The notes under the pieces: model-generated
What the model saw: the letters and a program-made list of their open reading frames with translations, nothing else
What the model was told of the DNA's origin: nothing
The model's database searches: none
NCBI GenBank assembly: GCA_947589005.1
Contig: CANPZO010000002.1
Span: 7,713-71,712 of the forward strand
Length of the DNA stretch: 64,000 nucleotides
DNA from: an uncultured Clostridia bacterium
GTDB taxonomy: Bacteria > Bacillota > Clostridia > UMGS1883
Direction: 5' to 3'
Program-made: the position numbers and the translations under genes
Shown here: piece by piece, positions 374-17,855 of the stretch
Layout: each line of letters starts with the position of its first letter
Position numbering within the stretch: the first letter of the stretch is position 1

Positions 374-541
374 TATTATTTCCCTCCTGTGTACCGCTCA
401 TGTTTACCCGACCTGATTGGCGGATATTTTTTCAGATCGTCTCTGTACTGCTCTCTTGTTTTAAAAAAGCTGCACCGCCCTGCCGCGCAAAACATATTCA
501 TCAATACGCTGCACTCTCCGTTTTTGTATGCGAAACAAGTC

Positions 542-1005: not shown

Positions 1006-1156
1006 CGGCTTTTTCCTCCTCTTTTGTTTCGTCCGAAGCGGGCGAATGTCTGTCCATTTCGTCGTCGGCCTGACTTGCTACGACGAGGCAGCAATATACC
1101 GCGATAATTATGCCCGCGACCACAAATGCGGCTGCTGCTACAAGTGCGATTTTCAT
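989..1156 (-). CDS. Small predicted membrane protein (about 55 aa, MKIALVAAAAFVVAGIIIAVYCCLVV...)
   Basis: Not in the ORF track (below cutoff). ATG at complement 1156 with upstream GAAAGG. Hydrophobic helix then acidic tail. Stop overlaps the start of the 748..1005 gene. Confidence 0.35.
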   Translation of the reverse strand: MKIALVAAAAFVVAGIIIAVYCCLVVASQADDEMDRHSPASDETKEEEKADGTEN

Positions 1157-1164
1157 TGTGTACA

Positions 1165-2019: not shown

Positions 2020-2885
2020 TAAGTATCACTCCCTCCGTACAAATCAAAAGCCACCGCGTTCTGGAGCTGGGCTTCAGCGGTGGCAGGTACATTAAACAGC
2101 GACGTTATGAGGTAGGCTTTCATGTTGCGGATTTTCTGGGTGTTTTTCTCAAACTGGAGCAAAAAGCTCTCAATGCCGGCATAGTCTATATCACGGAAGC
2201 GCTTCCGCACAAGCTCTGTGCTGTATGTGTAGCCCTCTATGACATAGCTTGACCGCTCCACGGTCAGGACTTCGGCCATGATGTTGACTATTTCATCGAC
2301 TACGGCCCGGTCATGTGTGGCCGTGAGGCTTTCATAGCAGATGTTCTGCCGGACAAATTCGGCGTTCTGTTCGTATTTATCCACCGACCTATCCGCTGCG
2401 GGATTGATAGATGGGTAATTAATACGCTCAGTATTTGATTTGTTTTTATTTGATTTATCTTTTATTAATTGCGTTGGATTTTCCAACGTAGGTTTTGCCT
2501 GCGTTGGCTTTACCAACATTGGATTTTCCAACGTAGGCTTTTCCAACATAGGTTTCTCCAACACAGGCTCGTCCAATGCAGGCTCTCTCGGCTCAGGCTT
2601 TTCGTGTATCACATACTCTGCGTCGGTGAGCTGGCCTTTTTCATTCCTGCGGCGGCTGCGCTCGATGTATCCGGCCGCCTCCAGCTCCTTTATGGAAACG
2701 CGGATAGCGTCGATGCCCTCCCTGCTGATGATGGCTAACCCTCTCAGGGTGTAGTCCCACTCCTCCGGCAGACTGAGCATGACGGACATCAACCCCTTTG
2801 ACCTGAGCGACAGCCTCTTGTCCCGCAGATGACAGTTTGACATCACGGTAAAGTCCTTGTTTTTTTCTACCCGGAATACTGACAT
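2019..2885 (-). CDS. Putative replication initiator / DnaD- or RepA_N-like winged-helix protein with Pro/Glu-rich pentapeptide repeat region
   Basis: N-terminus 'LSLRSKGLMSVMLSLPEEWDYTLRGLA...IKELEAAGYIERSRRR' resembles Firmicutes RepA_N / replisome-organiser wHTH. Central in-frame repeats (EKPMLEKPTLENPMLVKPTQ...) are encoded by the 15-bp tandem DNA repeats. Confidence 0.5.
   Translation of the reverse strand: MSVFRVEKNKDFTVMSNCHLRDKRLSLRSKGLMSVMLSLPEEWDYTLRGLAIISREGIDAIRVSIKELEAAGYIERSRRRNEKGQLTDAEYVIHEKPEPREPALDEPVLEKPMLEKPTLENPMLVKPTQAKPTLENPTQLIKDKSNKNKSNTERINYPSINPAADRSVDKYEQNAEFVRQNICYESLTATHDRAVVDEIVNIMAEVLTVERSSYVIEGYTYSTELVRKRFRDIDYAGIESFLLQFEKNTQKIRNMKAYLITSLFNVPATAEAQLQNAVAFDLYGGSDT
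2466..2600. repeat. About nine tandem 15-bp repeats (ttggattttccaacg-like units) inside the initiator-like gene
   Basis: Direct reading of the sequence. The units encode pentapeptide repeats on the minus strand. Confidence 0.8.
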
Positions 2886-2967
2886 GGTGTTCCTCCTTTC
2901 TTGATTTTTTGTATATGAAAAAGGCGTGTATCTTTGGTGATACGCGCCTTAACAACAAAATTGGGCA

Positions 2968-2996
2968 TTGACAAAGTTGTATAGTTATGATATAAT
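2968..2996 (+). promoter_or_regulatory. Consensus sigma-A promoter (TTGACA-17-TATAAT)
   Basis: TTGACA at 2968-2973, a 17-nt spacer, TATAAT at 2991-2996. Confidence 0.7.
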
Positions 2997-3002
2997 CTAC
3001 TA

Positions 3003-3188
3003 TACACAGGTAATATGTGTGAGCTTAATATGGCTTGTGTATATTTTATGGCAAGAAGTATTTGAACAAGCGCCTATGTCCCTAAAAGCTGAAATTATTC
3101 CTAAAAAATCGGCATACTTCTCCGCCAACAAAACCCCCACTTGGGGGCGAAAAATCCCAGAGCTTAAAGGGCTTTGGGATTTTTTGTG
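3003..3188 (+). ncRNA. Candidate small RNA (about 185 nt) from the consensus promoter to a two-hairpin intrinsic terminator
   Basis: A perfect promoter is followed about 140 nt later by hairpins 'cccccacttggggg' and 'aaaatcccagagcttaaagggctttgggatttttt' plus a T-run. No credible ORF. The overlapping 79-aa ORF starts inside the promoter. Confidence 0.35.
3134..3186 (+). terminator. Rho-independent terminator (double hairpin plus T-tract)
   Basis: Stem-loops at 3134-3147 and 3151-3185 followed by TTTTTT. Confidence 0.7.
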
Positions 3189-3313
3189 CTTTGTTGCGGT
3201 ATTGTAGTAGGGAAAAACTGATGTCGTTATAGAAATTTTCAATAGCTCATGCACCAAAGCTCCTTTCAGATATATATCATTACTTTGATATTATCAGAAA
3301 GGAGTTTTTTATT

Positions 3314-3682
3314 ATGAAAAAAATCTGGACAAAAGCGCAGTGCCATGAGCTTATGGGGCTTCCCCCTCCCGTTCATGCGAAGATTGATGAAACCGTCGCG
3401 ATACTCAACTTTTACTATGGCGAGAACAGAGATGTTGACAAAAATCTCGGCGGATACGTTCTACTGATAGAGAGTGAGAAAGATTTTGAAAGCCTTAAAG
3501 CTATCTTTCATGAGGAGATAGAAAACCTGACCGCAGAATATGTGGATATAATCCAATGCGAAAATACATCCGCATATATATGCGCTCAAATTATGCTCTC
3601 TGACGATTATTCCGTCGTATTGCTTATTCCCCGTCCCATAACGCCAAACTCGCTGTTAAAACAGGCAAATTCACGCTCATAA
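3314..3682 (+). CDS. Hypothetical protein (122 aa), paralog of 9442..9810
   Basis: RBS GAAAGGAG 8 nt upstream. No recognisable family. Duplicated within the window. Confidence 0.6.
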   Translation: MKKIWTKAQCHELMGLPPPVHAKIDETVAILNFYYGENRDVDKNLGGYVLLIESEKDFESLKAIFHEEIENLTAEYVDIIQCENTSAYICAQIMLSDDYSVVLLIPRPITPNSLLKQANSRS

Positions 3683-3906
3683 GCACACATTATCCGGCTA
3701 TGGTCTATCATTGGGCCATAGCCTTTTTTATTTGCCCTGAAAATACATCTGCACATGGGGACGCGAAATAAGGTCATATTACGATGACTTTTTCCCTCGC
3801 CTGTATTTTGGCGCCGGGCACTGAAAACATGACAAAAACAAACCCCGGAGAGCGAGGGAACTCTCCGGGTAAATTTATATTAAAGGGGATTTACACCCAC
3901 GTATTT

Positions 3907-6900
3907 TTACACTATTTCCACTGTCTCAGCTTCGCCGAGGGGCGTCATTGCTCGCAGCGATCTCCACACAAAGACCTTGGCCCGCTTAATATCCGCGGAA
4001 AGCGGAATATCAATGGTGTAGGACGCGCTGCCGTCACATTCCTGACTTCTCACCGACAAAAGTTTGCCATTGCCATCATATGCCGTCACAATTACAAACG
4101 CATTTTCGAGAGGTTCTGAGGCATCGACATAAAACCTGTAGCTGGACGAGAGCTTTTTATATGTAGTGGCCGTGAGCTTTTCACCGGGTTTGTCGCCAAC
4201 ATCGCCATCATCAAGGCCCACGTCAGGCTCCTGACCGGTGGTGAAAGACTTTATGTCGCCAAATTCAGTCATCTGGAACATATATGTTGTCTCCGAAAGC
4301 AGTCCGTCAATACGCACGCTGTAATCTCCGCCGCCGGCCTCGACCTCGGTCAAAATGACGTTTTCCGGCTCGGAGGCCATCCAATAGCGGATGTATCTCA
4401 CTATGCCGTCGCCCTGACCGGATACGCTGCCGCTCAGTGTCGCGTACCAACTGTCCACATCTTCCGCGTCATTGGTGACCGCCGTAACCTTTGTGCTGGT
4501 GCCGGCCACGTCTAAGGTAATAACGGTGTCCTTGTCGATGATGAAGCTATTGCCGCCCAGCTCCTCGCCGTTGACGTAAATCGCGTCGACCGTATACTCG
4601 GCGGCGGCTTCGGCGTTTACGCGGATTTCCGCGCCGTCAAGAGCTTTAATTCCGCTTGAACCGTCCGCCATCAGGAACACCGCTGAGGCGATCTCCGCCG
4701 GATCGGCGTCCACGTTTTCAAGGGAGCCGGCGGCGTTGGCCGTGGCCTGAACGGTGGCTCTGTATTCGGGAGTTATTTCTCCAAAGGTGGCGTACACGCT
4801 GCTGTCGCCGCTGACCTCGAAGGTGGAGCCGACGGTCTCGACGCCGTTGACGTAAATTTTGCCCAACACATAGCCCTGGTCAGGAACGGCGGAGACGGTG
4901 ACGATCTCGCCGTCCACGGCTTGGGACTTGTCCACGGTCACCGTACCGTGCTCCACCGCGCCCACGCTTATCTCGTTAAGGCAGTCGGTGTACAGGGTGG
5001 GGAGCTGACCCTCTCTTATCACCCATACGGCGTCGGGATTTTCTTGGAGATAGTCCATGGACTGGTAAGGCGTACCGAAAACTCTCTGCTGGAAGGACGC
5101 GCTCTTAAGCTGAGACATGGGTCGCTTGGTCTCGCTTGTTTCAACCTTTTTGCCGCTCGTCGTCAGCTTGAGACCGTCGTTGACATGGTTGTTTTGATAT
5201 GTGGCTGATAAATTGATTTCGCCAACAATATCGCCAACTTTAGAGCCGGTGTTATTGGAAATTATTTCATTAACGATAACAACAACGTCGTTTACGACGC
5301 CACTGCCTGACGCACCGCCAATATTTGCTTTACAATTAGCGGATATTACGCCGTTTACTTTTGCGAAACATTTTTTGCAGTCACCTTTGCCTGTCAAACC
5401 GCCAATTTTAATATTTGCTTTCTCATTTTTATTCCCATTGCATACAATTGCACCACCTTGATATTGGCTATCTTCGATGATTCGAGACATATTCCCCGCT
5501 ATGCCGCCAACATACATATCCTTTGCTCGGTTAGAGTTTACGCAAATGCTGTCATCGTCTGATGTAAACTTTACTGTACAGCGAAGGATGGAATCCGTAC
5601 ATATGCCAACAAGCCCGCCAATATTAAACGTGCTGTATGAGGTGTCGTTATAATATAGTTCTGTAGGATTACTGGTCAATTGTGCGGCGGATACTGTACA
5701 ATTGTATATCATTCCTTCTGAAGCACCGACCATACCGCCCACACTCGTATATTGACCAACAGTGCCGGAAATGGTCATAAGACTATCTTGGGACGTTACT
5801 TCGCAGTCAGTTAGATTGCCATCTATGCATCCTGACAATTGTCCTACTGTTAAATTTCCCCAGTTAACATCTCGATCAAGTGAAATAAAACATGTGTATG
5901 CCGAGCAATTTATGATGTCTCCTGTAATATCACCCAAAAGGCAGCCGAGACAACCCTCATCAGCAAATGAAACTCCTGATACGTTTACATATGTAGCTTT
6001 GCAACTGTCAATGTTTAAACATAATCCGCGTCCTAAAAGTGCTCCCACATATCCGTCACCATATCTATTGTCCATAGTAAAGCCATGGATATCTCCTGAC
6101 ACAGCTACATTTTTCAGCTCGCCAAATTTACCTGATTCCCAGTATGATTTTTTCCCTTTCGCATACCCAAAAATACCAACATAGCCTTCATAAGCCTTGG
6201 TGATCCTCAAATCCGAAATAGTATAGCCGTTGCCGTCAAACGAGCCGCGAAAATACTGATAATCGTTGCCGTAAAGACCGATGGGCACCCATTCGGTGTT
6301 GCCGAGGCTGATGTTGCCGGTAAGCTCGTAGTATTCATACTCCGGATCCGAGGTTTGGGAATTTACCCTTTGTGCAAGATAGGCGAGCTCGGCGGCGCTG
6401 GATATCTGATAGGGGTCGTCCTTGGTGCCGCTGCCGCCGGCAAAGGCCGTGGCCGTGCCGCCGCTCCACGAGCTGTCGCCCCAGACCGCGTAAAGGGTGG
6501 CGTCGTCCTCAAAGGTGTAGTCCATGCCGAGGCGGTATTCCGGCGCGGAAGCGTCGTAGCTCTTCGCCCAGCCACGAAGATAGCAGCCGTCCTTTATGGC
6601 CGAATTGGGCATACGCATGGTGTCGCCGTAGGTCAACTTCTGGTCCTGGAGCTCGCCCTTGCCGCCGTTGAGGTCAAAGTGTATGTCAAAGACCTTTGGT
6701 TCCCATACGGCGTAGAGGGTTATGTTTGTGTTTCTGTTATATCTGCCGCCGGCCTCGTATGAAGCGTAAGCCGCGGTTCGGCTTGAGGCCCAGCCCAGAA
6801 AATTATAGCCCTTTTTTGTGGGCACGGTACGGGACAGGGTCAGGGGCTGATCCTGTATTTTGGACTGCTGGGCGGGCGCGCCAGTGCCGCCGTTGGCGTC

Positions 6901-7965
6901 ATACTGCACGGTATAGGTGTTGTATATCCGGAAATCGTCACAGCTTACGGTCTTTTCCTGACCGGTATTAGTGTTGCGGACAATAAGGCTCGCGGAGTAG
7001 CTGCCGGCGGAGAGGCCGTTTACGCGGTGCTCGATGGCGTTCATGCTGTAGGTGGCGTAAAGGCCGCCGTTTTGGTAAAGCTGGAGGGTATAGTCCGTGG
7101 CGTTGGAAGCGTTGCCGCGCTTGAAGGTGGCGCTCCCGCCGGTTTTGTCAACCGTTCTTGTGAGAACGATATTGCCGATGGGATAGCACGAGCGGCAGCT
7201 TGTCACGCTTCGGGTGGAGCCGGTGTACTCCTTAGCCCCGCAGGACGTACACGTTTTGTACTCCTGATGCGGGTGGCCGCTTTCTAATTGAGTGATCCAG
7301 CTGTGGGTATGGGCGGCGGGTTTCTGGGCCGGTGAAGTCAGATTGCAGCTTCCGCTCGAAATGTACCAGTATTGGTTCAGGTTGCCTATTCGTTGGTCTT
7401 GCGTATCTCCGGATAAATAAGCCTGTGTAAGTTTAATACGGCCTGAGGGAATGCCAGAGGCTGGGTCAGCACAATAGACCGTATCCGAAGAAGCGTCGTA
7501 GTCAGTCGCCAAAACAGCATGGCGGCGTTTGGAGGGGTAGCTGTCATTAGGATACATATAGATAACTACGCCTTCCGCATGCTCACTGAGCAAAGAAATG
7601 AGCTTGTTTTTCTTATCCGCCGAAGAACCGGAAAACATACCGTATTTTACGGTCATTCCGGCATAAGAAAAACTAAGTCTTTGTCCCGCACCGGATACCC
7701 ATCCATAAGGCTCAACCGCGCTTTCTGTTATAGAATCCCAGTTTTCGTTGCCGCTTAAAAGCGCGTTCCTGCGAAGCATCATTGTTACAGAGGCCAAGGT
7801 ACACCTGCCTTTGCCCGACTGCTTTTTAAACACCGACGGATCATTTGCTGATGGAAGCGCCATAGTTTCGGCATCCCCTGTGCTCGCAAACGAAGCCGCC
7901 GGCACAAAGCTCAGAACCATTGCCATACAGACAAGCATGGCTAAAAGTTTTTTCCACTTTATCAT
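3907..7965 (-). CDS. Large secreted surface protein with several domain-like segments
   Basis: Start is the MIKWKK ATG with AAGGAGG RBS (the upstream ATG lacks an RBS). Signal peptide present. Segments: C39-like papain-fold peptidase motif 'GKGRCTLASVTMMLR'; two 'YNFLGW...YAVWEP' Listeria-Bacteroides repeats; a long Gly/Asn-rich beta-helix region; FN3-like; C-terminal recurrent 'YDGNGKLL...VFVWRSLRAMTPL' module. Confidence 0.75.
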   Translation of the reverse strand: MIKWKKLLAMLVCMAMVLSFVPAASFASTGDAETMALPSANDPSVFKKQSGKGRCTLASVTMMLRRNALLSGNENWDSITESAVEPYGWVSGAGQRLSFSYAGMTVKYGMFSGSSADKKNKLISLLSEHAEGVVIYMYPNDSYPSKRRHAVLATDYDASSDTVYCADPASGIPSGRIKLTQAYLSGDTQDQRIGNLNQYWYISSGSCNLTSPAQKPAAHTHSWITQLESGHPHQEYKTCTSCGAKEYTGSTRSVTSCRSCYPIGNIVLTRTVDKTGGSATFKRGNASNATDYTLQLYQNGGLYATYSMNAIEHRVNGLSAGSYSASLIVRNTNTGQEKTVSCDDFRIYNTYTVQYDANGGTGAPAQQSKIQDQPLTLSRTVPTKKGYNFLGWASSRTAAYASYEAGGRYNRNTNITLYAVWEPKVFDIHFDLNGGKGELQDQKLTYGDTMRMPNSAIKDGCYLRGWAKSYDASAPEYRLGMDYTFEDDATLYAVWGDSSWSGGTATAFAGGSGTKDDPYQISSAAELAYLAQRVNSQTSDPEYEYYELTGNISLGNTEWVPIGLYGNDYQYFRGSFDGNGYTISDLRITKAYEGYVGIFGYAKGKKSYWESGKFGELKNVAVSGDIHGFTMDNRYGDGYVGALLGRGLCLNIDSCKATYVNVSGVSFADEGCLGCLLGDITGDIINCSAYTCFISLDRDVNWGNLTVGQLSGCIDGNLTDCEVTSQDSLMTISGTVGQYTSVGGMVGASEGMIYNCTVSAAQLTSNPTELYYNDTSYSTFNIGGLVGICTDSILRCTVKFTSDDDSICVNSNRAKDMYVGGIAGNMSRIIEDSQYQGGAIVCNGNKNEKANIKIGGLTGKGDCKKCFAKVNGVISANCKANIGGASGSGVVNDVVVIVNEIISNNTGSKVGDIVGEINLSATYQNNHVNDGLKLTTSGKKVETSETKRPMSQLKSASFQQRVFGTPYQSMDYLQENPDAVWVIREGQLPTLYTDCLNEISVGAVEHGTVTVDKSQAVDGEIVTVSAVPDQGYVLGKIYVNGVETVGSTFEVSGDSSVYATFGEITPEYRATVQATANAAGSLENVDADPAEIASAVFLMADGSSGIKALDGAEIRVNAEAAAEYTVDAIYVNGEELGGNSFIIDKDTVITLDVAGTSTKVTAVTNDAEDVDSWYATLSGSVSGQGDGIVRYIRYWMASEPENVILTEVEAGGGDYSVRIDGLLSETTYMFQMTEFGDIKSFTTGQEPDVGLDDGDVGDKPGEKLTATTYKKLSSSYRFYVDASEPLENAFVIVTAYDGNGKLLSVRSQECDGSASYTIDIPLSADIKRAKVFVWRSLRAMTPLGEAETVEIV

Positions 7966-8084
7966 GTATATTCCTCCTTGTTTTTTTCTCATTATAACAT
8001 ACTATCTTTAAAAAAGCAATACTATCTCTATAAATTTATAAAAAATGTCTTTAAAAAGGATATAATATATTTGGTGATGATATA

Positions 8085-8414
8085 ATGAATTTGAAAAACA
8101 TAGGAAAAAACGTCAAGCAAATACGGAAGTCACGTAACTTGACCCAAGAAAAGCTGGCCGAGGCTATTGATATTTCCACCGTTCATATGTCACACATTGA
8201 AACAGGCAGCGTCTGCATGAGCCTCGACTGCCTGCTTTACCTGTGTACGGTTCTTGGAACCACGCCAAACGACATTTTGTTAGGCGAATTTGACCTGCCG
8301 GTCGAGGGGCAGGTGCGCATATCTGACGAAAAAATAAAAAGGCTCACCGCCGACGAGCTTTTGTTTATAGGCCGCGTCGCCGATTTGTTGAATGAAATTA
8401 AGCTGAACAGATGA
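8085..8414 (+). CDS. Xre/Cro-C1 family HTH transcriptional regulator
   Basis: HTH_3 motif 'IRKSRNLTQEKLAEAIDISTVHMSHIETG'. Confidence 0.8.
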   Translation: MNLKNIGKNVKQIRKSRNLTQEKLAEAIDISTVHMSHIETGSVCMSLDCLLYLCTVLGTTPNDILLGEFDLPVEGQVRISDEKIKRLTADELLFIGRVADLLNEIKLNR

Positions 8415-8692
8415 GGCCCGATATCCCTTTTGAAAACTCTATGCAACTGTTTACCGGCAAAATCAACGAGTTGACAGAGGAAAACGAGCGGCTTAACCGA
8501 GAAATAACTGAGAAAAAAGCCTCACTACCCGCCGCCCCTCTATCAACAGATGAAATCATGGCCTTAAAGCAAGACTTCATCACCTATATGCTTGACGAGA
8601 ACAATCTCCCGATTTGTAAAAAATGCCTTCAATCACTGATTGAGGGCATTTTTATTTATGAGGATGAAGTCAAGATAGTTTTCAACATTTAA
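8411..8692 (+). CDS. Hypothetical coiled-coil protein (93 aa)
   Basis: ATGA overlap with the upstream Xre gene. C-terminus '...CKKCLQSLIEGIFIYEDEVKIVFNI' faintly recalls a recombinase C-terminus (weak). Confidence 0.4.
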   Translation: MRPDIPFENSMQLFTGKINELTEENERLNREITEKKASLPAAPLSTDEIMALKQDFITYMLDENNLPICKKCLQSLIEGIFIYEDEVKIVFNI

Positions 8693-8699
8693 ACCTACA

Positions 8700-9231
8700 T
8701 CTGTCCCCATTTTGAGCCTATCCTCACCATAAGAGGATAGGCTCCTTTCGGGCATGATTTGTAAAATTCAAATATACATCTACCTATGAATTTAAGATAT
8801 CAGCTATATGCAGATGAGCAGATGTTTTCATCTGCATATCATGCGCACTCTTTCGAAGATAGTTTTTACCAATAACTTACTGCACTTTATAAATCCATGC
8901 TCCCCCGCTCCCCCTTGTTTAATCTATCACGCATGCAGGGATAGAACGATTTTTCATGTGCATATATGGTTATACAGCTTTAGTTAAAGAGATTATTATT
9001 TTCTATAAGGTCTGTGTAATATTATCAACAGAAGATGAGACAAGTACATATATCATCTGAAGATAGCTATTATATATTTTCATAGCAAGATGAATTATGT
9101 AACTCTATCATCTGCGGATAGATTTTTTTAAACCTCATCTTTCCATGATAACTTCATTTTCACTAAAAATTTTTTAAAGTTATTTTTATCAGGTACTTAC
9201 TGCACTTTCGTCTCCAAGGTGGGGAATTTGA
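8700..9231. repeat. AT-rich non-coding region with multiple short inverted repeats around a 'catctg' core and 14-bp direct repeats 'acttactgcacttt' (8873 and 9195)
   Basis: For example 'atgcagatga...tcatctgcat', 'agatga...tcatct', 'ctatcatctgcggatag'. The direct repeats are exact. Confidence 0.6.
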
Positions 9232-9258
9232 CGGTATACGCACCTTCTCCGCCAACAA

Positions 9259-9312
9259 AACCCCCACTTGAGGGCGAAAAATCCCAAAGCTTAAAGGGCT
9301 TTGGGATTTTTT
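9259..9312 (+). terminator. Rho-independent terminator (copy of 3134..3186)
   Basis: 'cccccacttgaggg' then 'aaaaatcccaaagcttaaagggctttgggattttttt'. Confidence 0.65.
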
Positions 9313-9441
9313 TGTGTCTTATTGCGGTATTGTAGTAGGGGAAATGTGATGTTGTTATAGGATTTTTCAATCGCTCATGCACCAAAGCTCCTTTCAGATA
9401 TATATCATTACTTTGATATTATCAGAAAGGAGTTTTTTATT

Positions 9442-9810
9442 ATGAAAAAAATCTGGACAAAAGCGCAGTGCCATGAGCTTATGGGGCTTCCGCCTCCTGT
9501 TCATGTTAAGATTAATGAAACTGTCGCAATACTCAATTTTTACTATGGCGAGAACAGGGACGTTGACAAAAATCTCGGCGGATACGTTCTGTTGATAGAG
9601 AGCGAAAATAATTTTGAAAGCCTTAAAGCTATCTTTCATGAGGAGATAGAAAACCTGACCGCAGAATATGTGGATATAATCTCATGCGAAAACACGTCCG
9701 CATATGTATGCGCTCAAATTGTGCTCTCTGACGATTATTCCGTCGTAATGCTTATTCCCCGTCCAATAACGCCAAACTCGCTGTTAGAACAGGCAAATTC
9801 AAGCTCATAG
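9442..9810 (+). CDS. Hypothetical protein (122 aa), paralog of 3314..3682
   Basis: About 93% amino-acid identity to the copy A gene, with the same RBS context. Confidence 0.6.
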   Translation: MKKIWTKAQCHELMGLPPPVHVKINETVAILNFYYGENRDVDKNLGGYVLLIESENNFESLKAIFHEEIENLTAEYVDIISCENTSAYVCAQIVLSDDYSVVMLIPRPITPNSLLEQANSSS

Positions 9811-10084
9811 GTAATGCCATAAGCGGTTGATGAAACATATATTATCATTTTGATATATACCAGCGGCCGACTGTGCAGGAACATAGTCCATCGCTCCTAT
9901 TCTACTTAAGAGAGACTTGTATTTTATAAAAAGCTGTGTTATTATACATATGATTTTACTCATCAATAAACTACATCTCAGATCTTGGTGTAAATAAAAA
10001 AATTATATAAAAACCGAACCTTTTACGCTGATTTTGTCACTATATAATGTCAGTACTGAAAAAATTATGAAAGTGGGATGCCAT

Positions 10085-12571
10085 ATGAAACGGTACAGTG
10101 ACCGGAGCGATGGCGAGCTTGTCTACATGACTCTAAGCGGTGACACAGATGCTTATGGAGAGCTGGTTGCCCGGCACAAAAATACAGTCTACAATGCGGC
10201 TTATGCTGTTGTGCATGAGCATTACGCGGCGGAGGACATCGCCCAAGACAGCTTTGTGGACGGCTTTATGCAGCTTCACCGGCTTTACGATCCGAACAAG
10301 TTTCCGGGCTGGATATATGCTGTCGCCCGGCGCAAGGCATTGCATTACGTCTCTCGCCGGCGGACGCATGAGGACATAGACAATGTTCCGGCAGTCAGCG
10401 CCGGCAGCGACCCTCTTGCCCGTATACTGAAAGAGGAAAGAATAAACGAAGTCAGAGCCGCTGTTGACGCCCTTTCTGAGAAAAACAGAACCGTAGCGGA
10501 GTTATTCTATTTTAAGAATGTTAATGTCAGCCGGATATCCGCTTTATTGGCTCTGCCGGAGGGAACTGTTAAGCGCAGGCTTCATGAGGCAAGAAAAAAA
10601 CTTAAAGAGAGGTTGGGATATATGCACGAAATGAGAAAAGAGGTCTCTGCCGATTTTGAAAAGATAGTGCAGAGGAAGATCAAGGAGTTGTCCGATTACG
10701 TGAGGCTCCACGGTTATGACGAGGATTATGATAAGCTGATCGGGGAGCTGGTGGACTTTGTTGTAACCCTGCCGGACTCCGAAGAAAAATGGTCGGCATC
10801 AGAAAATGTGGCTGAAACGCTTAGAGATATGTTTTTCTACCAATTCCGCGGGATGAATGATAATCATGAGGAGGCTATAAAATTCTTTGATACTGTGGCA
10901 GTTCCAAAAATGGAGAGCCTGAAAAATAACACCGGCATGGGTGATATTCTGTTTTGGCGTGGAGTGTGCAAATTTGCGCTTCGCCAAACAAATGAGGCCC
11001 GGGCCGACTTTACGGAGTCCCTGCGGCACTCAAAACCCTCCGATATTATGCACGCTTTGGCGGTTTCGGCTGTCAGGACGGTTGATCTGCTGAAAGAAAA
11101 TGCCGAGGACAACATACTGGGATATCAAATCACAGCCGAGGGCTACCGTTATGAGGGAGGAAAGCTCATTTTCCGAAGCCAGCCGGGAATTATCTCCGGC
11201 CGCCAGCACGAGAGCCTTAGTCATGTTTCCTTGGGATATTTCCTGTCGCGCTGTGATGACATTATGTTTGATACAGAAATGAAGGTGGGAGACATTCGCA
11301 CGAGCGACGGCGGAAGGATAAGTCTCGCGCTTGTTGCCCTTGACGAAAGCGTTACCGTTCAGGCGGGGACCTTTGAGTGTATGCACCTGATTTTGACTGA
11401 GGCGGGAGAGGTTACAGATGTCTGGTACTCCGATGGCATTGGCCTTGTTCGCGCAAGGTTCAATGGTCAGGAAAATGAGGAGGTTTACGAGCTGTCGGAG
11501 TATGAAATCAAGGGCGGCGAGGGGTATTGGCCTTTCTGTGAGGGCAACCGCTGGCGGTATGAAAACCCCGGTGTGCCCGACTACATTTATTATCGGCTGG
11601 AATATGAGGTGGACTGGACTGACGGTGCCTCCGCCAACCTATCCTACGTTACACCCATTGCATATAAGAAGAATTACGATTTGGAATATAGCATGGACAG
11701 CGATATGTATATTGATAAATGTTATCTCTGCTGCGACAACTGGGAGATAGATGAGGCTATTGAAGCTCTACGGCTGGCCGTTAGGGAAAACACATCACAG
11801 CAAGCGGCCTTGGCGGCTCTGGGCGGCATCGAGTATCTCGAATGGTTCAGAGATCTCAACAACAAGAATTACCGCTTCTGCCCGTCGAGCTACGCCGTCA
11901 GCAAAATCGGAAGGCTCGGCGACAAGATAGTTTATTCAGAGGGCGGAGTATATAGGTTTGGGCCATACCGTCTCGGTACCCGTTTTGAGGAAAACCGTAT
12001 TTTCGGTTATAAGCCCTTGCGATATCTGGAAATACTCTGTGACTGCGTCTGGGATGATAGCTGGGTTGACGGATACAGAAGCGAATGGAAATATGATGAC
12101 GCGGATGTTACGCTAACCGTGAATAAGGCGGGAGAAATTACCGTTCCGGCGGGTACATTTGCAGACTGCTTGAAGGTGATCATTACCGCCGAAGCTTCGG
12201 GTCTCAGCGGCGGCTGCTACTTTGACGATTACTCTCACACCTGGCGGGGAAAAAAGGAATACTGGTTCGCGCCCGGAGTGGGACTTGTACGCTTTGATTG
12301 TGAATGGGGTGATGTGCTGGACGCCTCTGCGCAATTGGTAAATTACCGTAATCCTGCCGGAGAATATAGATATTTCCCCTTGGCGCTGGGCTGCGAATGG
12401 GAGTATGACGAAGTGAATATGTCTCGCGAGGGCTACTGCGCTAAACGAATCATGAAAGTTATGTGCGGCATGAACAAACAATACCTGATGCAAGACATAA
12501 GCAAGGGCGTATTCCTTGGCACAGAAGAAGAGTATGAGGAATTTAAGAGAAAAATCTCGAAAAACAATTAA
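10085..12571 (+). CDS. ECF-type sigma-70 family protein fused to a long (about 650 aa) C-terminal extension with an internally duplicated domain
   Basis: Sigma region 2 ('YNAAYAVVHEHYAAEDIAQDSFVDGFMQL...PGWIYAVARRKALHY') and region 4 HTH ('LSEKNRTVAELFYFKNVNVSRISALLALPEGTVKRRLHEARKKL'). The C-terminus shows twice '...AGTF..C....IT.A.......YW.APGVGLVRF...' with no TM segment. The start is taken at MKRYS (the upstream ATG lacks an RBS). Confidence 0.7.
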   Translation: MKRYSDRSDGELVYMTLSGDTDAYGELVARHKNTVYNAAYAVVHEHYAAEDIAQDSFVDGFMQLHRLYDPNKFPGWIYAVARRKALHYVSRRRTHEDIDNVPAVSAGSDPLARILKEERINEVRAAVDALSEKNRTVAELFYFKNVNVSRISALLALPEGTVKRRLHEARKKLKERLGYMHEMRKEVSADFEKIVQRKIKELSDYVRLHGYDEDYDKLIGELVDFVVTLPDSEEKWSASENVAETLRDMFFYQFRGMNDNHEEAIKFFDTVAVPKMESLKNNTGMGDILFWRGVCKFALRQTNEARADFTESLRHSKPSDIMHALAVSAVRTVDLLKENAEDNILGYQITAEGYRYEGGKLIFRSQPGIISGRQHESLSHVSLGYFLSRCDDIMFDTEMKVGDIRTSDGGRISLALVALDESVTVQAGTFECMHLILTEAGEVTDVWYSDGIGLVRARFNGQENEEVYELSEYEIKGGEGYWPFCEGNRWRYENPGVPDYIYYRLEYEVDWTDGASANLSYVTPIAYKKNYDLEYSMDSDMYIDKCYLCCDNWEIDEAIEALRLAVRENTSQQAALAALGGIEYLEWFRDLNNKNYRFCPSSYAVSKIGRLGDKIVYSEGGVYRFGPYRLGTRFEENRIFGYKPLRYLEILCDCVWDDSWVDGYRSEWKYDDADVTLTVNKAGEITVPAGTFADCLKVIITAEASGLSGGCYFDDYSHTWRGKKEYWFAPGVGLVRFDCEWGDVLDASAQLVNYRNPAGEYRYFPLALGCEWEYDEVNMSREGYCAKRIMKVMCGMNKQYLMQDISKGVFLGTEEEYEEFKRKISKNN

Positions 12572-12605
12572 CGTTTAAGTATCCATTGGTCCTCCGTCTG
12601 ACATA

Positions 12606-12640
12606 ATGAAAAACGGCTGTCGGTGACAGCCGTTTTCTCT
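12606..12640 (+). terminator. Intrinsic terminator after the sigma-fusion gene
   Basis: 'aaaacggctgtcggtgacagccgttttctcttt'. Confidence 0.6.
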
Positions 12641-13242
12641 TTAGTTCTTGCAAAGTTCTTAACGCCGGTGTATTGAACGAGTTTCATGCAATATTAATCT
12701 TTTCGTGAATTATATTTTTTACAACAATGCAATTTAAAAAAGAGAACATTTCAAAATTTGTTAATGGGGTAGGTGAATATAATTTTGACTGTAAATACAA
12801 AATGGCGGTTGTGTCCCATTTGTCTATCTTAAGATCTACGCCCATATACAAGTTATCATCTCTGTAGAAAATGGGGGGCGGGCTCTAACTATACCAACAG
12901 CAAAGTCTTTTGGCTCAGAAAGGAGATGCCAAGCTGTTGGAGCCATATAAAATCCCATGTATCCTGCGCATAGGAAATCAGGACGAAAACGGATCGGCGG
13001 GAACAGCCGTTCCGATGATGAAAAATTGACGTTTATGCAAAAATATGGCTGGCTGATGGAGGACACGGATGTGAGGTTTTACAGCTCATTTTTTAAACAG
13101 CAGCGTAAAGAAACGCAAAAATAGGATTTAAATGAAAATGCAGTGCTTAGGCACATGGTGAACAAAGTCGTATATATACACTTTATGGTAAATATAAATG
13201 GTTAATATTTTGCGCAATTTCCTATCATCGTATTTTATACAC

Positions 13243-13271
13243 TTGATTTTATCAGTCATATCATTTATAAT
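13243..13271 (+). promoter_or_regulatory. Sigma-A-like promoter for the LysR gene (TTGATT-17-TATAAT)
   Basis: Hexamers at 13243-13248 and 13266-13271. Confidence 0.5.
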
Positions 13272-13328
13272 ATTTATGTATAACCGCAAAAAAATTACAA
13301 TGAGCGCACGTCGAAAGGAAAAAATGCC

Positions 13329-14213
13329 ATGTTGAAACAAATCAGATATTTTCACGCCGTGGTGCGTCTGGGCAGCTTCAGCGAGGCGGCGGAGCAATGT
13401 TACATATCGCAGTCCGCGATCTCTCAGCAGGTTCAGGCCCTGGAGCGGGAGCTGGGCGTAACGCTGCTGAAACGGGAGAACCGGCATTTTTCTCTGACGC
13501 CCGCCGGAGAGCATTTCTACCGGCAAAGCCTTTTATTTATGGCGGACTTTGACCGGCTGTGCAAGGAGACGAAACAAATCGCTCAGGGAGATGATTTTGT
13601 CCTGCGCGTCGGATATACCAAGGGATACGGCGGCGCGGAATTTCAGCGGGCGGTGGCGGAATTTACGGCGAAATACCCCGATGTTCCCATCGACATGAAA
13701 AACGGCAATCACGAGGACTTGTATGAACTACTGCGCGGTGGACAGGCGGATTTGGTGCTGAACGACCAGAGGCGCGCTTTTTCGGACGAGTACGTCAATA
13801 CCGTCCTGACCGTAATAAACTGCTATATCGAAATATCCGCCAGAAATCCCATTGCCGGGTTGGATTATGTCAATGTCAGCGATCTGCGGAACACTCCCTG
13901 TATTTTGGTCGCATCGAAAGAGCAGCAGGAAAACGAACGGTCCTATTATCATGAGATATATGGGATCGAGAGCCAATTTATATTCGCCGAAAATTTGGAT
14001 GAAGCACGGCTCATGGTCGTGAGTGGGAAGGGCTTTCTCCCCATTGAGGGAGGCGAGGCGCCGTCGCAGTTTGCCGAGACGATTGCGCGGCTTCCCCTTT
14101 GCCGAAACGGAAAACCCATAAGACGCAATTACTGCGCTTTTTGGAAGGTCAATAACTCCGGCTACTATATCGAGGAATTTGCCGAGATATTGAAAGCTCA
14201 GTTTAAGAAATAG
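13329..14213 (+). CDS. LysR-family transcriptional regulator
   Basis: N-terminal LysR HTH 'IRYFHAVVRLGSFSEAAEQCYISQSAISQQVQALERELGVTLL'. 294 aa. Confidence 0.85.
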   Translation: MLKQIRYFHAVVRLGSFSEAAEQCYISQSAISQQVQALERELGVTLLKRENRHFSLTPAGEHFYRQSLLFMADFDRLCKETKQIAQGDDFVLRVGYTKGYGGAEFQRAVAEFTAKYPDVPIDMKNGNHEDLYELLRGGQADLVLNDQRRAFSDEYVNTVLTVINCYIEISARNPIAGLDYVNVSDLRNTPCILVASKEQQENERSYYHEIYGIESQFIFAENLDEARLMVVSGKGFLPIEGGEAPSQFAETIARLPLCRNGKPIRRNYCAFWKVNNSGYYIEEFAEILKAQFKK

Positions 14214-14382
14214 AATATTTGATTCTGTCTAAGAGCCTGCCGGTGCAGGTTCTTTTTTCGTATTAGCTTTTGCTTATAGATAAGCCCCGAAAATCGAATT
14301 GCACTTTCCGACGGAAAGCTGTACAATATAAAGTGTAAATATGGCTTCGGAAGATAAAACAAATCATAAGGAGGACTTTATC

Positions 14383-14904
14383 ATGGATAAAAATCTGATC
14401 ATCTACTACTCCCGCAAAGGGAAAAACTACGTAAACGGCGGCATCAAAAATCTTGCCAAGGGCAACACGGAGATCGTGGCGGAGTTTATCCAAAAAGCAG
14501 TGGGCGGCGACCTTTTTCAGATCGAGACGGTAAAGGAATACGCAGCGGACTATTATGCCTGCACTGACGAGGCTAAGAAAGAACTGCGCGAACAGGCAAG
14601 ACCGGAGCTGAAAAAGTATCTGGACAGCATTGACTGTTACGACAACATTTTTGTTTGCGGCCCATGCTGGTGGGGAACTTTCCCGATGGCGGTGTTCACC
14701 CAGCTTGAAAGGCTGGATTTCACCGGCAAAAAGGTAATGGCCGTCATGACCCATGAGGGCAGCGGCCTCGGCTCCTGCGAGCGCGACCTGAAGAAAATCT
14801 GCGTGGGCGCGTCCTTTGGAAAAGGGCTTGCCATTCACGGCGCGGACGCCGCAAGGTCCGAAAGCACGGTTGCGGCATGGACGAAAAAGGCCGCCGCAAA
14901 TTGA
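14383..14904 (+). CDS. Flavodoxin-family protein (Flavodoxin_4-like), cytoplasmic
   Basis: RBS AAGGAGG before MDKNLIIYYS. Motifs 'LIIYYS...G.T' and 'FVCGPCWWGTFP'. Paralogous to the flavodoxin domains at 37768, 35687 and 38466. Confidence 0.8.
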   Translation: MDKNLIIYYSRKGKNYVNGGIKNLAKGNTEIVAEFIQKAVGGDLFQIETVKEYAADYYACTDEAKKELREQARPELKKYLDSIDCYDNIFVCGPCWWGTFPMAVFTQLERLDFTGKKVMAVMTHEGSGLGSCERDLKKICVGASFGKGLAIHGADAARSESTVAAWTKKAAAN

Positions 14905-14929
14905 TGATTTTAATAAGGAGGAAAGCAAA

Positions 14930-15784
14930 ATGATTCTTGACAGAAACGAAAACAAAGAAGTGGTTGTTCTTTTGGGCGCCGGCAGCATGGGGTGCGCCAT
15001 TGTCCGCCGCATTGCCGCGGGCAAAAAGATTTTGCTGGGCGACATCAGCGAAAAGGCGCTGGAGAGGGTTTCCCGTGAGTTCACCTACGGCGGGTACGAT
15101 GTGGAAACGCAGGCCGTAGACGCCTGTGATGAGCAGTCCATAAGGGCATTCGCGGAAAAGGCCGCCTCTCTCGGTCCGGTAATGTACTACATCCACACGG
15201 CGGGCGCGTCCCCCAGTCAGGCAAGCCCGGAACATATCATCAAGCTCGACTTGATCGGCACCTCCTACGCCATTGACGCTTTCGGTGAAGTGATGGCGCG
15301 GGGCGGCGCGGGCCTCATCGTTTCCAGCCAGACCGGGTATATGCCTCATACCCTCACTGCCGAGGACGAAGAAGCCCTTGCCATGACGCCGACTGATAAG
15401 CTCGCCTCCCTCCCTTGTCTCGACGGCTCGAAAACGCCTAATCAGGGCGCGGCCTATATCGTCTCCAAGCGGGTGAATCAGCTCCGCGTCCGCACGGCGG
15501 CGGCCACAACATGGGCGGATCGAGGTGCAAGGATTAACACCATAAGCCCCGGCATCATCGTGACGCTATTGGCCTATGACGAGTTCAATTCGCCGGGCAA
15601 CACCTATCAGAACATGATCGACTGCTCCGCCGTGGGCCGCGCGGGAACATCGGACGAGATCGCGGCGGCGGGCGCGTTTTTGCTGGGGACGGACGCCGGA
15701 TTTATCACGGGAACCGATTTGCTCATAGACGGCGGCGTGATCGCTTCTCTTAAAAGCGGGCGGTTCAATCTCAATATCAGGTAA
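14930..15784 (+). CDS. Short-chain dehydrogenase/reductase (SDR)
   Basis: RBS AAGGAGG. Rossmann 'VVVLLGAGSMGCAIVRRIA'. SDR catalytic region 'AAYIVSKRV'. Confidence 0.85.
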   Translation: MILDRNENKEVVVLLGAGSMGCAIVRRIAAGKKILLGDISEKALERVSREFTYGGYDVETQAVDACDEQSIRAFAEKAASLGPVMYYIHTAGASPSQASPEHIIKLDLIGTSYAIDAFGEVMARGGAGLIVSSQTGYMPHTLTAEDEEALAMTPTDKLASLPCLDGSKTPNQGAAYIVSKRVNQLRVRTAAATTWADRGARINTISPGIIVTLLAYDEFNSPGNTYQNMIDCSAVGRAGTSDEIAAAGAFLLGTDAGFITGTDLLIDGGVIASLKSGRFNLNIR

Positions 15785-15892
15785 GAAAGTCAGTGCGAAA
15801 ATGGAGCGGCGTGGACAGCCGTTCCGTTTTTTATGGCTCATTATCGTCGCCCTTAATTTCATTCAATTCATGAACCGTTTTCTTACCCGGCT

Positions 15893-15940
15893 TCAACCTT
15901 TTGGTTTAACCGTATAAACTTTTTTGAACTTCCCTTTTTT
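15893..15940 (+). promoter_or_regulatory. Conserved upstream element copy 1 (aaccttttggtt...ataaacttttttgaacttcc)
   Basis: One of three copies (also 33066..33112 and 37652..37725), each about 45-50 bp upstream of a start codon. Confidence 0.6.
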
Positions 15941-15991
15941 GATAAGCTGTTGTAAAATATGCTTAGGTAAAGTTTTCAGGGAAGGATGTGG

Positions 15992-17855
15992 AATGATGAA
16001 AAATATTATCGGAATGGTTCTGGGGCTGGCTGTCGTGCTGACTGCGTCAGCATGCAGCGCGGCGGAAAACGACAGCGGCAACGCTTCGAGCTTTATCCCC
16101 GACGCCAGACGGACTCAGACCATTTATTTTTGGGACGAGGGAAATGTCCCGGCCACCACAAGCTATACCGTCAACAACGGCAATTACTTTGATCCGCCCG
16201 AGTTCCGGCCGAATATGATTTTTTATCCGGCGGACGAGGGTACGCAGATAAAGGGCGCCGTGATGATAAATCCGGGCGGGGCTTTCATGTTCCGTGGCGA
16301 CAATGAAGGCGCTCCGGTGGCGAGAATGCTCAACCGTTACGGCTATCAGTGCTTTGTCGTCAATTACCGGCTCCGTCCCTATACCCAGGAGGAGGGCGCC
16401 CTCGACCTGGCGAGAGGCATAAGGTTCGTGCGGAAACACGCCGACATCTACGGCATCGACCCCCGGGATATAGCGTCAATCGGTTTCAGCGCCGGAGGAA
16501 TTCTGAGCGGAGAAGTGGCCATGAACTTTGACGGGCTTGTGAACGGGACCGCCATCGATAGTGGCTATGTCCCCGATGAACTGGATCAAGTGAGCGCCGA
16601 CTTGGCCGCGGAAGGGATGTTCTATTCATTTTACGGCAGGCTAAGCGTGGCGTCCCTCGACGTCGATAAGTTTCGGGAGGCCGAGCTGCCGCCAACCTAT
16701 GTCTGCTATGGCAGCAACGAGGTGTTCCGAGGTCAGATCGAAAATCACATTGTCGCCCTCCGCGAGGCGGGTATCCCTGTCGAGACTAATATGCTTGAGG
16801 GTCTGTACCACGGCTTTGCCTCGGGCGGCGGCTGGGGAGATGATTTTGACCGCTGGCTGAGCGGGGTTTTCGCGGAAAACGGCGGGGAGCTTACCGCTGA
16901 CTTTGCCTCGGCGGAACTGCGCGGCGGCGAGCTGACATACTCCCTCGACATAAAAGGGAACCCCGACAGAGCCGACATAATAGTCGCCTTTTACGACAGC
17001 GGCGGGACATTGGCGGGCGTGAACATAAATAAGCCGGAGGGCACGATAAACGCCGGTGGCGGAGGCACGCTAAAGCTGTTCCTGTGGGAGAAAGGGGCGC
17101 TCAGACCACTGACCGCGGCGAAAACCCTGCGTTTCGGCGGCGAACGGGAAACTCACCTCAACAATGTACTCGCCGGAGCGGACGGCAATATCCACTACAC
17201 CTACATTCTTCCGGCGGGGTACGACGAAAGCAAAACCTATCCCATGCTGATGACCTTGCCCGGCTGGAGCAATCTGTTCAATACCATCGAGACGACGCCC
17301 CTTACACAGAACCGTTACGCCGAGGGCAACGCGGCCGCGTGGACCGAGCTGGGAGGGGACTTCATCGTGGTTTCGCCCAGCCTCACCGACTGGGGCGCGA
17401 AATCGGCCCGTCAGACTGTTGAGCTTGCCGACTATTTTGTGGAAAACTTCCCCGTTGACCCAAAGCGGATATACGCGGCGGGCTTTTCCGCCGGAGGAGA
17501 GACTCTTTCGAGGGCGGTTGACATGAGGCCGGAGCTGTTCGCGGCCTATCTGCATATCTCGTCCCAGTGGGACGGCGGCTTTGAAAACGCGGCCTCCGCG
17601 CGTCTGCCGGTGTATATCTTCATAGCGGAGAACGACGAATACTACGGCTCGGCTCAGGCCCGCCGGGCATACGCTTCTCTTCGGGAAGCCTACGCCGCCG
17701 AGGGCATGACGGATGAGGAAATCGACGGGCTGCTGGTTCTGGACGTGCGGGACGATGAGTTCTTCAACGATCTGGGCATATACAGCTACCATGGCGGCGG
17801 AGGCGTCGCCGCAAACCAACAGGATATTATTTTGTGGATGTTAGGGAGGAATTAA
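15992..17855 (+). CDS. Secreted lipoprotein with two alpha/beta-hydrolase (esterase) domains separated by the recurrent YD..G.L/F.W..PL module
   Basis: Signal 'MMKNIIGMVLGLAVVLTASAC'. Domain 1 has 'NPGGAFMF' and the 'GFSAGG' nucleophile elbow. Domain 2 has 'GFSAGGETLS' (esterase / PHB-depolymerase-like). The middle carries 'AFYDSGGTLAGV...LFLWEKGALRPL'. Confidence 0.8.

Follow-up and report, generated by a model that had tools for sequence, protein, structure and literature searches.

The gene described here lies in a 64-kb stretch of DNA from an uncultured Clostridia bacterium, which we refer to as the window. It is a complete coding sequence at positions 10085 to 12571 of the plus strand (828 amino acids and a stop codon) and encodes an extracytoplasmic function (ECF) sigma factor with a C-terminal extension. 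We found that the protein belongs to a conserved, previously undescribed group within the known class of one-component sigma factors; it does not represent a new principle. Arguing largely by analogy, we lean towards a model in which it would be a cytoplasmic one-component ECF sigma factor, with a helical domain that gates the sigma domains intramolecularly and two beta units that serve as the input module.

The sigma domains are found near the N-terminus, within residues 9-183; a first-pass annotation of this DNA had placed sigma-70 regions 2 and 4 in the first 190 residues. Sigma region 2 (residues 9-95, positions 10109 to 10369, plus strand) is matched by Pfam PF04542 (Sigma70_r2, residues 27-93; E = 9e-10) and forms helices over residues 9-95 of an AlphaFold2 model. 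Sigma region 4 (residues 110-183, positions 10412 to 10633, plus strand) is supported by the same model and by PF08281 and PF04545, with Sigma70_r4_2 at residues 121-173 and the r4 and r4_2 matches together covering 121-175. Between these two regions, the model shows a disordered linker (residues 92-112) with a pLDDT below 50. The Pfam search recovered only these two sigma regions and found neither region 1.1 nor region 3. The NCBIfam model for ECF sigma-70 proteins, TIGR02937, scored 81.2 bits against a cutoff of 42.9, and none of the NCBIfam equivalog models (SigW, SigM, SigV and others) reached its cutoff, the best partial matches being PRK12515 and SigW. When a profile of the family was compared with the PDB, it matched SigW, AlgU and RpoE structures with E-values of 1e-40 to 1e-32 (SigW 5wuq, 3.5e-40). 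The protein therefore has the features of an ECF sigma factor, namely regions 2 and 4 with a short linker between them, a superfamily score above the cutoff, and a predicted promoter with an AAC-containing -35 and a GTC-type -10 element; ECF promoters of this kind (-10 elements of GTC or CGT type) are often autoregulated. Its sequence assigns it to the ECF (group 4) sigma factors of the RpoE/SigW type, apart from the separate anti-sigma factor that usually accompanies them.

The rest of the protein, about 640 amino acids, is built from three parts. A short hinge (residues 182-185), of low confidence in the AlphaFold2 model, connects sigma region 4 to a seven-helix domain that resembles tetratricopeptide repeats (TPRs). 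This TPR-like domain covers residues 186-340 (positions 10640 to 11104, plus strand), with helices at 191-339 in the model. A match to TPR_2 at residues 287-315 scored 21 bits, which is under the Pfam cutoff of 27, and the extension runs for a further 490 amino acids in other folds. Beta unit 1 (residues about 341-530) and a three-helix insert (531-596) follow at positions 11105 to 11872 (plus strand), as delimited by AlphaFold2 models and HHalign. This unit contains the motifs AGTFEC(432)MH, GIGLVRA and PFCEGNRWRY, and residues C432, G453, P483, G487, N488 and W490 are invariant among 32 family sequences. Beta unit 2 (residues about 597-812) and a C-terminal helix (813-828) complete the protein at positions 11873 to 12568 (plus strand); they were delimited by a Pfam DUF3108_like match at 678-736, HHalign and the AlphaFold2 model. 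The motifs of beta unit 2 are AGTFADC(695), GKKEYWFAPGVGLVRF and YFPLALGCEWEY. In the AlphaFold2 model itself, the secondary structure of beta unit 1 spans residues 348-528, that of the three-helix insert 531-593, that of beta unit 2 602-810 and that of the terminal helix 814-827. In addition to the invariant Cys432, residues Cys550, Cys599, Cys695 and His434 are conserved in 75-84% of family members.

The two beta units are copies of one another. BLASTP of the two halves of the extension aligned residues 357-493 with 619-775 (27% identity, E = 1e-6), and HHalign on family sub-alignments aligned 353-498 with 607-780 over 145 columns (probability 99.5%, E = 2.6e-23). Because both methods align the two halves, we consider the duplication real. 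The first-pass annotation had described two copies of a unit of about 120 amino acids; the duplication stands, but the unit is longer. In the AlphaFold2 model the full structural repeat is a beta domain plus a helical tail of about 230-255 amino acids, and the 120-residue stretch is its best-conserved core. The prediction of the fold, which the same annotation had suggested as a check, was confident: residues 340-828 modelled alone gave a pLDDT of 91.5 and a pTM of 0.84, and the full-length model, made from a 32-sequence family alignment, had a mean pLDDT of 87.7. The sigma domains and the beta units are equally conserved among homologs (41-46% identity to the query), which suggests that the beta units are under constraint comparable to that on the sigma domains. 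The helical domain shows 25-32% identity, with the lowest value (25%) in its first half.

The extension is soluble. No transmembrane (TM) segment was found in the query, where the maximum Kyte-Doolittle mean over 19 residues is 1.2, or among 71 family proteins, where the maximum is 1.69. These values agree with the earlier reading of an extension of more than 600 amino acids that does not enter the membrane. The motif of zinc-binding anti-sigma (ZAS) domains, HxxxCxxC, was likewise absent from all 71 family members.

A profile search identified the nearest relatives of the repeated domain. The Pfam family DUF3108_like (PF21347) matches the extension at 38.5 bits against a cutoff of 27, in two stretches of which residues 678-736 are the best; of the 199 positions of the Pfam model, only 135-183, in its last third, align well. 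The family profile reached two PDB entries: 4fvs_A, a DUF3108-like lipoprotein from structural genomics, at E = 1.4e-5, and 3fzx_A, a DUF3108 protein, at E = 1.1e-3. The extension sequence alone matched no PDB chain significantly, and 4fvs and 3fzx were reached by the family profile only. Thus, the domain is not uncatalogued, as the first-pass annotation had supposed, although the function of the Pfam family is unknown. Pfam, PDB sequence and family-profile searches linked the extension to no known family of anti-sigma factors or sensors; a match of that kind would have spoken against the first-pass annotation. Outside the sigma family, a profile of beta unit 2 found proteins of about 265 amino acids with PF11306 and/or PF21347. 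The two full-length examples that we examined (P0197 and P0218) have hydrophobic, signal-peptide-like N-termini. In these two proteins the PxxxGNxWxY strand comes first and the motifs TVPAGTFxDCLKV and YWxAxGVGxVK come last, whereas in the sigma extension the GNxWxY strand closes each repeat unit, after the AGTF...GVG core. This shift in motif order means that the register is either permuted or strand-swapped.

The members of DUF3108 and DUF3108_like that we compared (PF11306, PF21347; 4fvs BDI_3050 and 3fzx BF2203) are single-domain proteins of about 215-270 amino acids. In the sigma family, by contrast, the domain is duplicated, carries helical inserts and is fused to a sigma factor. In addition, the PDB records label 4fvs a putative lipoprotein and 3fzx a putative exported protein, whereas the units of the sigma family are cytoplasmic. 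By analogy, these weak fold neighbours suggest that the beta units could bind a hydrophobic ligand. RseB/MucB and other LolA-like sensors of sigma-E type pathways also come to mind, as the LolA-like superfamily (LolA, LolB and RseB) is marked by an unclosed beta-barrel around a hydrophobic cavity and the beta units look barrel-like, but the likeness is too weak for a claim of homology; RseB is a separate periplasmic protein that acts on the anti-sigma factor RseA, whereas the beta units are fused and cytoplasmic. Our literature search found no paper that links DUF3108 to sigma factors.

The fusion of the sigma domains to this extension is widespread. The extension alone matched 398 clusters at 50% identity (202 of them at E <= 1e-10); nearly all are 830-900 amino acids long, with the match beginning near residue 280, and every distant member sampled has sigma regions 2 and 4 at its N-terminus. 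Thirty-three full-length homologs, at 26-98% identity, share the architecture. A scan of one genome per species yielded 106 loci. The 80 that were kept are all from Clostridia metagenome-assembled genomes (MAGs) of animal or human gut, assigned to Oscillospiraceae, Ruminococcus, Lachnospiraceae and 'Eubacteriales', with no cultured isolate among them. The sigma domains and the extension were in a single frame in 73 of 86 loci, and most of the others were cut by contig ends.

The reading frame of the gene in the window is intact. One open frame extends from a TTG at 10034 to the stop at 12569-12571 on the plus strand and has no internal stops; as the first-pass annotation had read it, neither a stop nor a frameshift separates the sigma domain from the extension. 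We assign the true start, in agreement with that annotation, to the ATG at 10085 for three reasons: the closest homologs, P0001 (98% identity, 828 amino acids) and P0002 (80% identity, 830 amino acids), also begin with MKRY; the TTG at 10034 falls within the promoter described below; and the ATG further upstream at the locus of P0002 lies in another frame.

In our view, the best evidence at hand for sigma function is a promoter predicted for the family as a whole. We searched the 250 nt upstream of 71 family genes, taken from species-representative genomes and other assemblies, which gave 54 non-redundant regions. The motif cgAACCTTTT-N13-(G/C)(T/A)C(T/A)WWTA was present in 47 of them, 44-236 nt (mostly 44-120) before the start codon; its less degenerate form reads cgAACCTTTT-N13-GTCTWTA. 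A regular-expression version of the motif was found in 38 of the 54 regions, compared with a mean of 1.1 and a maximum of 5 in shuffled sequences. RpoE/SigW-type ECF promoters have GAAC, about 18 nt and GTCT, and the family motif has the same geometry. A position weight matrix (PWM) built from the 47 regions scored 33.8 bits at positions 10011 to 10047 (plus strand), with a -35 element AACCTTTT at 10017-10024 and a -10 element CACTATAT at 10038-10045. This was the only strong site in 64 kb; the next best site scored 12.2 bits, and shuffled sequences reached at most 17.5 bits. Over 871 kb of related loci, 64 of the 71 genes carried their own promoter within 300 nt upstream, at 17 bits or more. 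Seven further sites reached 17 bits, of which five are promoters of family genes with undefined starts and two are unexplained. Past the stop codon, by 39 nt, is an intrinsic-terminator-like hairpin (12610-12636, with a 12-bp stem and six G-C pairs) with a T-rich tail, the whole element spanning 12610 to 12646 on the plus strand. As promoter, single gene and terminator follow in succession, the gene appears to form a monocistronic unit. The family motif predicts that the gene is positively autoregulated through its own promoter, and because this autoregulatory ECF promoter is specific to the family, the protein probably acts as a sigma factor.

No gene for a separate anti-sigma factor adjoins the locus in the window. 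Upstream is a 122-amino acid open reading frame (ORF), and downstream the terminator is followed by a gene for a LysR regulator. We also compared the neighbourhoods of homologs, another check that the first-pass annotation had suggested. When the flanking ORFs of about 80 loci were clustered, no conserved partner gene emerged; the flanks differ from locus to locus, and the commonest cluster, a generic ABC ATPase, was found at 11 loci. The absence of an adjacent anti-sigma gene had been noted for the window beforehand, and it fits the pattern of ECF groups with extensions (PMC7826278).

Based on these results, we propose a model for how the protein might be controlled. The sigma factor would transcribe its own monocistronic gene from the family-specific promoter. 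Its regulator would be carried in cis, in a 1:1 ratio with the sigma domains, as the TPR-like domain and the two DUF3108-like beta units. In classical ECF systems, the brake is a co-transcribed anti-sigma factor. A positively autoregulated sigma factor needs a brake that scales with it, and as only its own tail is made in a 1:1 ratio, we infer that this tail does the regulating. Beside sigma region 4, the extension may pack on the sigma domains and so set the binding of core RNA polymerase or of promoter DNA, by analogy with ECF41, ECF42 and ECF238. The distal beta units would be the input, responding either to a cytoplasmic ligand, which the fold hints would be hydrophobic or amphipathic, or to a partner protein. 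Finally, inhibition by the tail would be relieved by the signal, although the direction of this control, like the intramolecular gating and the nature of the signal, is something we infer.

Several observations weigh against this model. The TPR extension of ECF42 is required for activity and is not inhibitory (PMC8999054); thus, the direction of control here could be the opposite of the one we propose. The pTM of the full-length model is 0.65, compared with 0.84 for the extension alone, so the placement of the sigma domains relative to the extension is not fixed by the model. Residues 186-260, next to sigma region 4, are the least conserved region of the protein, and they give weak support to a specific docking surface. 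Last, we searched for a regulon in about 0.9 Mb of sequence and in one exact-pattern scan of metagenomes: the PWM scan of the 64-kb window gave the gene's own promoter and no other target, and the metagenome scan gave no additional target promoter.

We weighed a more specific form of the model and four alternatives to it. In the specific form, the tandem DUF3108-like units would sense a hydrophobic metabolite of gut Clostridia in the cytoplasm (a lipid intermediate, a fatty acid or a bile-acid-type compound, for instance), and binding to this receptor would directly switch the attached sigma factor on; we regard this as rather unlikely. A possible alternative, which we doubt somewhat less, is that the extension is a positive module like that of ECF42, needed for folding, core binding or promoter opening and responsive to a partner protein bound to the TPR and beta units instead of a small ligand. 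The TPR-like domain lies directly after sigma region 4, as does the essential TPR extension of about 200 amino acids in ECF42 (PMC8999054). Related members match TPR_2 or TPR_12, in keeping with the weak TPR_2 match at 287-315, and protein-protein contacts are typically made by TPR domains and by the surfaces of beta sheets. However, the TPR match is under the Pfam cutoff, the approximately 80 loci contain no conserved partner gene where ECF42 has a YCII-related neighbour, and positive autoregulation without a brake would be unstable. It is also conceivable, but improbable, that the helices after sigma region 4 are a fused anti-sigma factor, and that cytoplasmic proteases such as ClpXP free a 20-kDa sigma factor when the beta units are destabilized or unmasked. 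Processed fusions of sigma and anti-sigma factors are known (ECF48/52/53 and IutY; PMC8999054), low-confidence hinges are present at 182-185 and 92-112, and frameshifted versions at two loci (L060 and L073), with the distal part as a separate ORF, suggest that separate chains are possible. On the other hand, the known processed examples are membrane-anchored, the family has no zinc-binding motif, TM segment or Pfam match to an anti-sigma factor, and the split genes may be frameshift errors or pseudogenes.

We give slightly less credence still to the idea that the extension serves as an effector or for targeting, perhaps by tethering RNA polymerase to some cellular structure or as an unrelated binding domain or enzyme, and that control is purely transcriptional. 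DUF3108-like domains have no known function, and cysteines 432, 550, 599 and 695 together with His434 could mark a catalytic or metal site; both points are compatible with an effector. Yet in the families sampled the module occurs almost only behind an ECF sigma domain. The closest outsiders are the DUF3108 proteins of about 265 amino acids, which lack an assigned function and in at least two cases start with a hydrophobic, signal-peptide-like stretch, and all characterized ECF extensions are regulatory (PMC8999054). The remaining alternative is an artefact in which a sigma gene and a DUF3108-like gene were merged by sequencing or assembly error, or in which the gene is a decaying pseudogene. 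Broken relatives do exist (an internal deletion at L059, a split at L099, and the frameshifts at L060 and L073). Against this, the single frame recurs in hundreds of clusters and in 73 of the 86 independent assemblies, strong constraint extends over the full length, and the AlphaFold2 model is confident throughout. On these comparative grounds we exclude an assembly artefact. The model we favour remains one in which the helical domain gates the sigma domains within the same chain and the beta units provide the input.

One-component sigma factors have already been described in ECF41, ECF42, ECF238 and others (PMC8999054, PMC7826278), and there is precedent for ECF sigma factors that are regulated by an extension without an anti-sigma factor (PMC7826278, PMC8999054). 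The SnoaL extension of ECF41 touches the linker and is both inhibitory and required, the TPR extension of ECF42 is essential and contacts sigma region 4 through its proximal part, and ECF238 has a Cys-rich tail that senses metal (PMC8999054, PMC7826278, PMC3426412). The first-pass annotation had proposed a one-component sigma factor with a built-in gate. Much of this has held up: a single polypeptide carries a soluble extension of more than 600 amino acids with a duplicated domain, anti-sigma genes are absent, the fusion is conserved below 30% identity and across hundreds of clusters, and the promoter is predicted to be autoregulatory. The concept itself was already in the literature. The same annotation gave the known extensions as 100-200 amino acids, which is too narrow, as those of ECF48/52/53 reach about 400 residues and ECF57 has WD40-like repeats (PMC8999054).

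The closest parallel is ECF42 (Streptomyces venezuelae Sven_0747 and Pseudomonas putida ECF-10), which is also soluble, lacks an anti-sigma factor and has a helical domain straight after sigma region 4 (PMC8999054, PMC7826278); in ECF42 this domain is of the TPR type, and here it is TPR-like, with a match under the Pfam cutoff. However, the ECF42 extension is about 200 amino acids long and consists of TPRs only, whereas the family described here has about 640 amino acids, with two DUF3108-like units after the TPR-like domain. A YCII-related gene lies near ECF42; no conserved neighbour was found at the approximately 80 loci, and no such Pfam family was found around L001-L006. The two groups also come from different phyla, the present one being from Clostridia. 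ECF41, ECF56, ECF205, ECF294 and ECF295 (e.g. M. tuberculosis SigJ) share the one-component logic, in that a ligand-type fold at the C-terminus touches the sigma core and the linker and replaces the anti-sigma factor (PMC3426412, PMC8999054). In the ECF41 type, this fold is a single-copy SnoaL alpha+beta barrel of 100-150 amino acids, which differs from the fold found here. Pfam gave no SnoaL match in the query at E <= 1, and SigJ (5xe7) matched the family profile with an E-value of only 0.68. ECF57 of the Planctomycetes and ECF48/52/53 resemble the present family in having large extensions that may be built from repeats (PMC8999054). ECF48/52/53 are membrane-spanning proteins with a zinc-finger anti-sigma domain and ECF57 is reported to have WD40-like repeats, whereas TM segments, ZAS motifs and WD40 matches in Pfam are all absent from the fully soluble family described here. 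Among the nearest sigma-only relatives, several have long extensions with matches to other domains, for example ankyrin (P0036), HEAT-type (P0037) and NHL-type (P0043) repeats. Thus, long soluble tails may be more widespread among ECF sigma factors than the first-pass annotation assumed.

The group is of interest because the extension types that have been studied are few (SnoaL, TPR and Cys-rich). The extension described here is soluble, three to four times longer, and built on a domain without a known function, and the family is confined to uncultured gut Clostridia but widespread among them, with more than 100 species-level genomes. As the start codon, the domain boundaries and the promoter at 10011-10047 are defined, heterologous reporter assays with truncations are feasible at once. 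If the beta units bind a ligand, this would be the first function for the DUF3108-like family, and the sigma factor and its promoter would make up a compact, orthogonal switch. If they form a receptor for a hydrophobic metabolite, the protein would be the largest soluble one-component sigma factor. If they bind no ligand, the family is simply one additional ECF group.

Other sites that resemble the family promoter were few. At locus L075, a second copy (1171-1207, plus strand, 31.8 bits), 2 kb ahead of the sigma gene, precedes two ORFs, at 1114-1605 (a small membrane protein) and 1625-3136 (a 503-amino acid ATPase, which we take to be MutS2-like on reading its sequence). This site is the only good candidate for a target other than the sigma gene itself. 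An ATPase related to the one at L075 is among the neighbours at L086. At L015, a site of 19.7 bits, which is near chance, lies before a protein with two TM segments. The metagenome scan with the exact consensus gave 12 matches: two were family promoters, five were in an unrelated high-GC conserved element, and the rest were uninformative. The high-GC element is a conserved 50-nt sequence, GATTC(A/C)SCCGAACCTTTT..GAMCCYTYNTGTGTCTAA......GAGAGCA, on environmental metagenome contigs (L090, L091, L092, L097 and L098; GC 0.59-0.65), and probably serves an RNA gene or an ECF system of another kind as its promoter or leader. An Rfam search of positions 8600-13400 of the window found nothing.

The family also has variant and broken members. 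A class of 1040-1140 amino acids has an additional C-terminal helical domain or a third beta unit. Some genomes contain two paralogs, as in the convergent pair at L058 and the pair L074 and L078 from one MAG. The L058 genes (32-1783, plus strand, and 1826-4345, minus strand) lie tail to tail and belong to different subclades; the complete paralog (839 amino acids, minus strand) has a promoter at 4381-4417 (33.2 bits), and its partner is cut by the contig end. Cross-regulation between paralogs is possible if they share the promoter motif. At L060 (4826-7446) and L073 (4895-7422), two distant family members, one ORF holds the sigma domains and half of the linker (313 and 288 amino acids, respectively) and another holds the rest of the extension (563 and 566 amino acids). 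Each gene is broken by a 1-nt frameshift of its own, and the two A-runs concerned are about 30 nt apart. In both cases an ATG lies exactly at the junction, with an ATGA overlap in L073. As the split site is not shared, we rejected a common natural gene fission; the breaks could be due to sequencing error, decay, or convergent fission with the tail acting in trans. Two copies are decayed. One (L059, 5681-6669) has an internal deletion that leaves its promoter, some 40 codons of the N-terminus and the final beta unit, and the other (L099, 2943-5543) consists of a 583-amino acid sigma ORF, a gap and a 180-amino acid beta-unit ORF. We also considered free-standing, trans-acting beta units and rejected them, as the short matches were contig-end fragments or broken genes such as L059 and L099. 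The case of L100 (371-2004) is ambiguous: an ORF of 250 amino acids with one beta unit lies directly upstream of an ordinary 174-amino acid ECF sigma gene at the start of a contig, and this is either what remains of a broken family member or a case of beta unit and sigma factor paired without fusion.

Positions 9895 to 12571 (plus strand) show 81% nucleotide homology to the closest named homolog locus, L005/L006, from an Oscillospiraceae MAG. Because the homology spans exactly 9895 to the stop at 12571 and the flanks are unrelated, we regard promoter and gene as a discrete cassette. At L005/L006 the cassette adjoins TnpV, and at L006 also a gene for a Mob_Pre relaxase. In the window, it adjoins a 566-bp direct repeat and a ParB/replication-initiator module. 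These neighbours place the gene at the edge of mobile DNA in both locations. The extension had no match in plasmid and phage collections.

The direct repeat, called repeat B, is at 9244 to 9809 (plus strand) and is 93% identical to its partner at 3117-3681. It ends before the gene starts at 10085, in agreement with the location given in the first-pass annotation, and it is context only, outside the sigma unit. Each repeat carries a 122-amino acid ORF that has no Pfam or PHROG match. We asked if the ORF of repeat B is TnpV-like, and the comparison was negative. The two repeats flank an islet that encodes a surface-type protein of 1361 amino acids (3907-7992, minus strand), a regulator of the XRE type (8085-8414) and a 93-amino acid ORF that weakly resembles an integrase in its C-terminal part. 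At 1165-2885 (minus strand) are ParB-like and DnaD/replication-initiator-like genes with strong PHROG matches, which point to a mobile element that has integrated immediately ahead of the islet. Within the initiator gene, a 15-nt unit occurs five times in tandem (2474-2578), and we read it as encoding a repeated pentapeptide.

On the other side of the sigma gene, positions 13329-17855 encode the LysR regulator, a flavodoxin-like protein, a short-chain dehydrogenase and a 621-amino acid double alpha/beta-hydrolase; the PWM scan found no family promoter before these genes. A 43-nt direct repeat (12972-13014 and 15784-15826, 81% identity) contains the palindrome GGAACAGCCGTTCC. One copy is in the intergenic region past the sigma gene and the other is just after the stop codon of the short-chain dehydrogenase gene, and the repeat may be a terminator-type or REP-like element.

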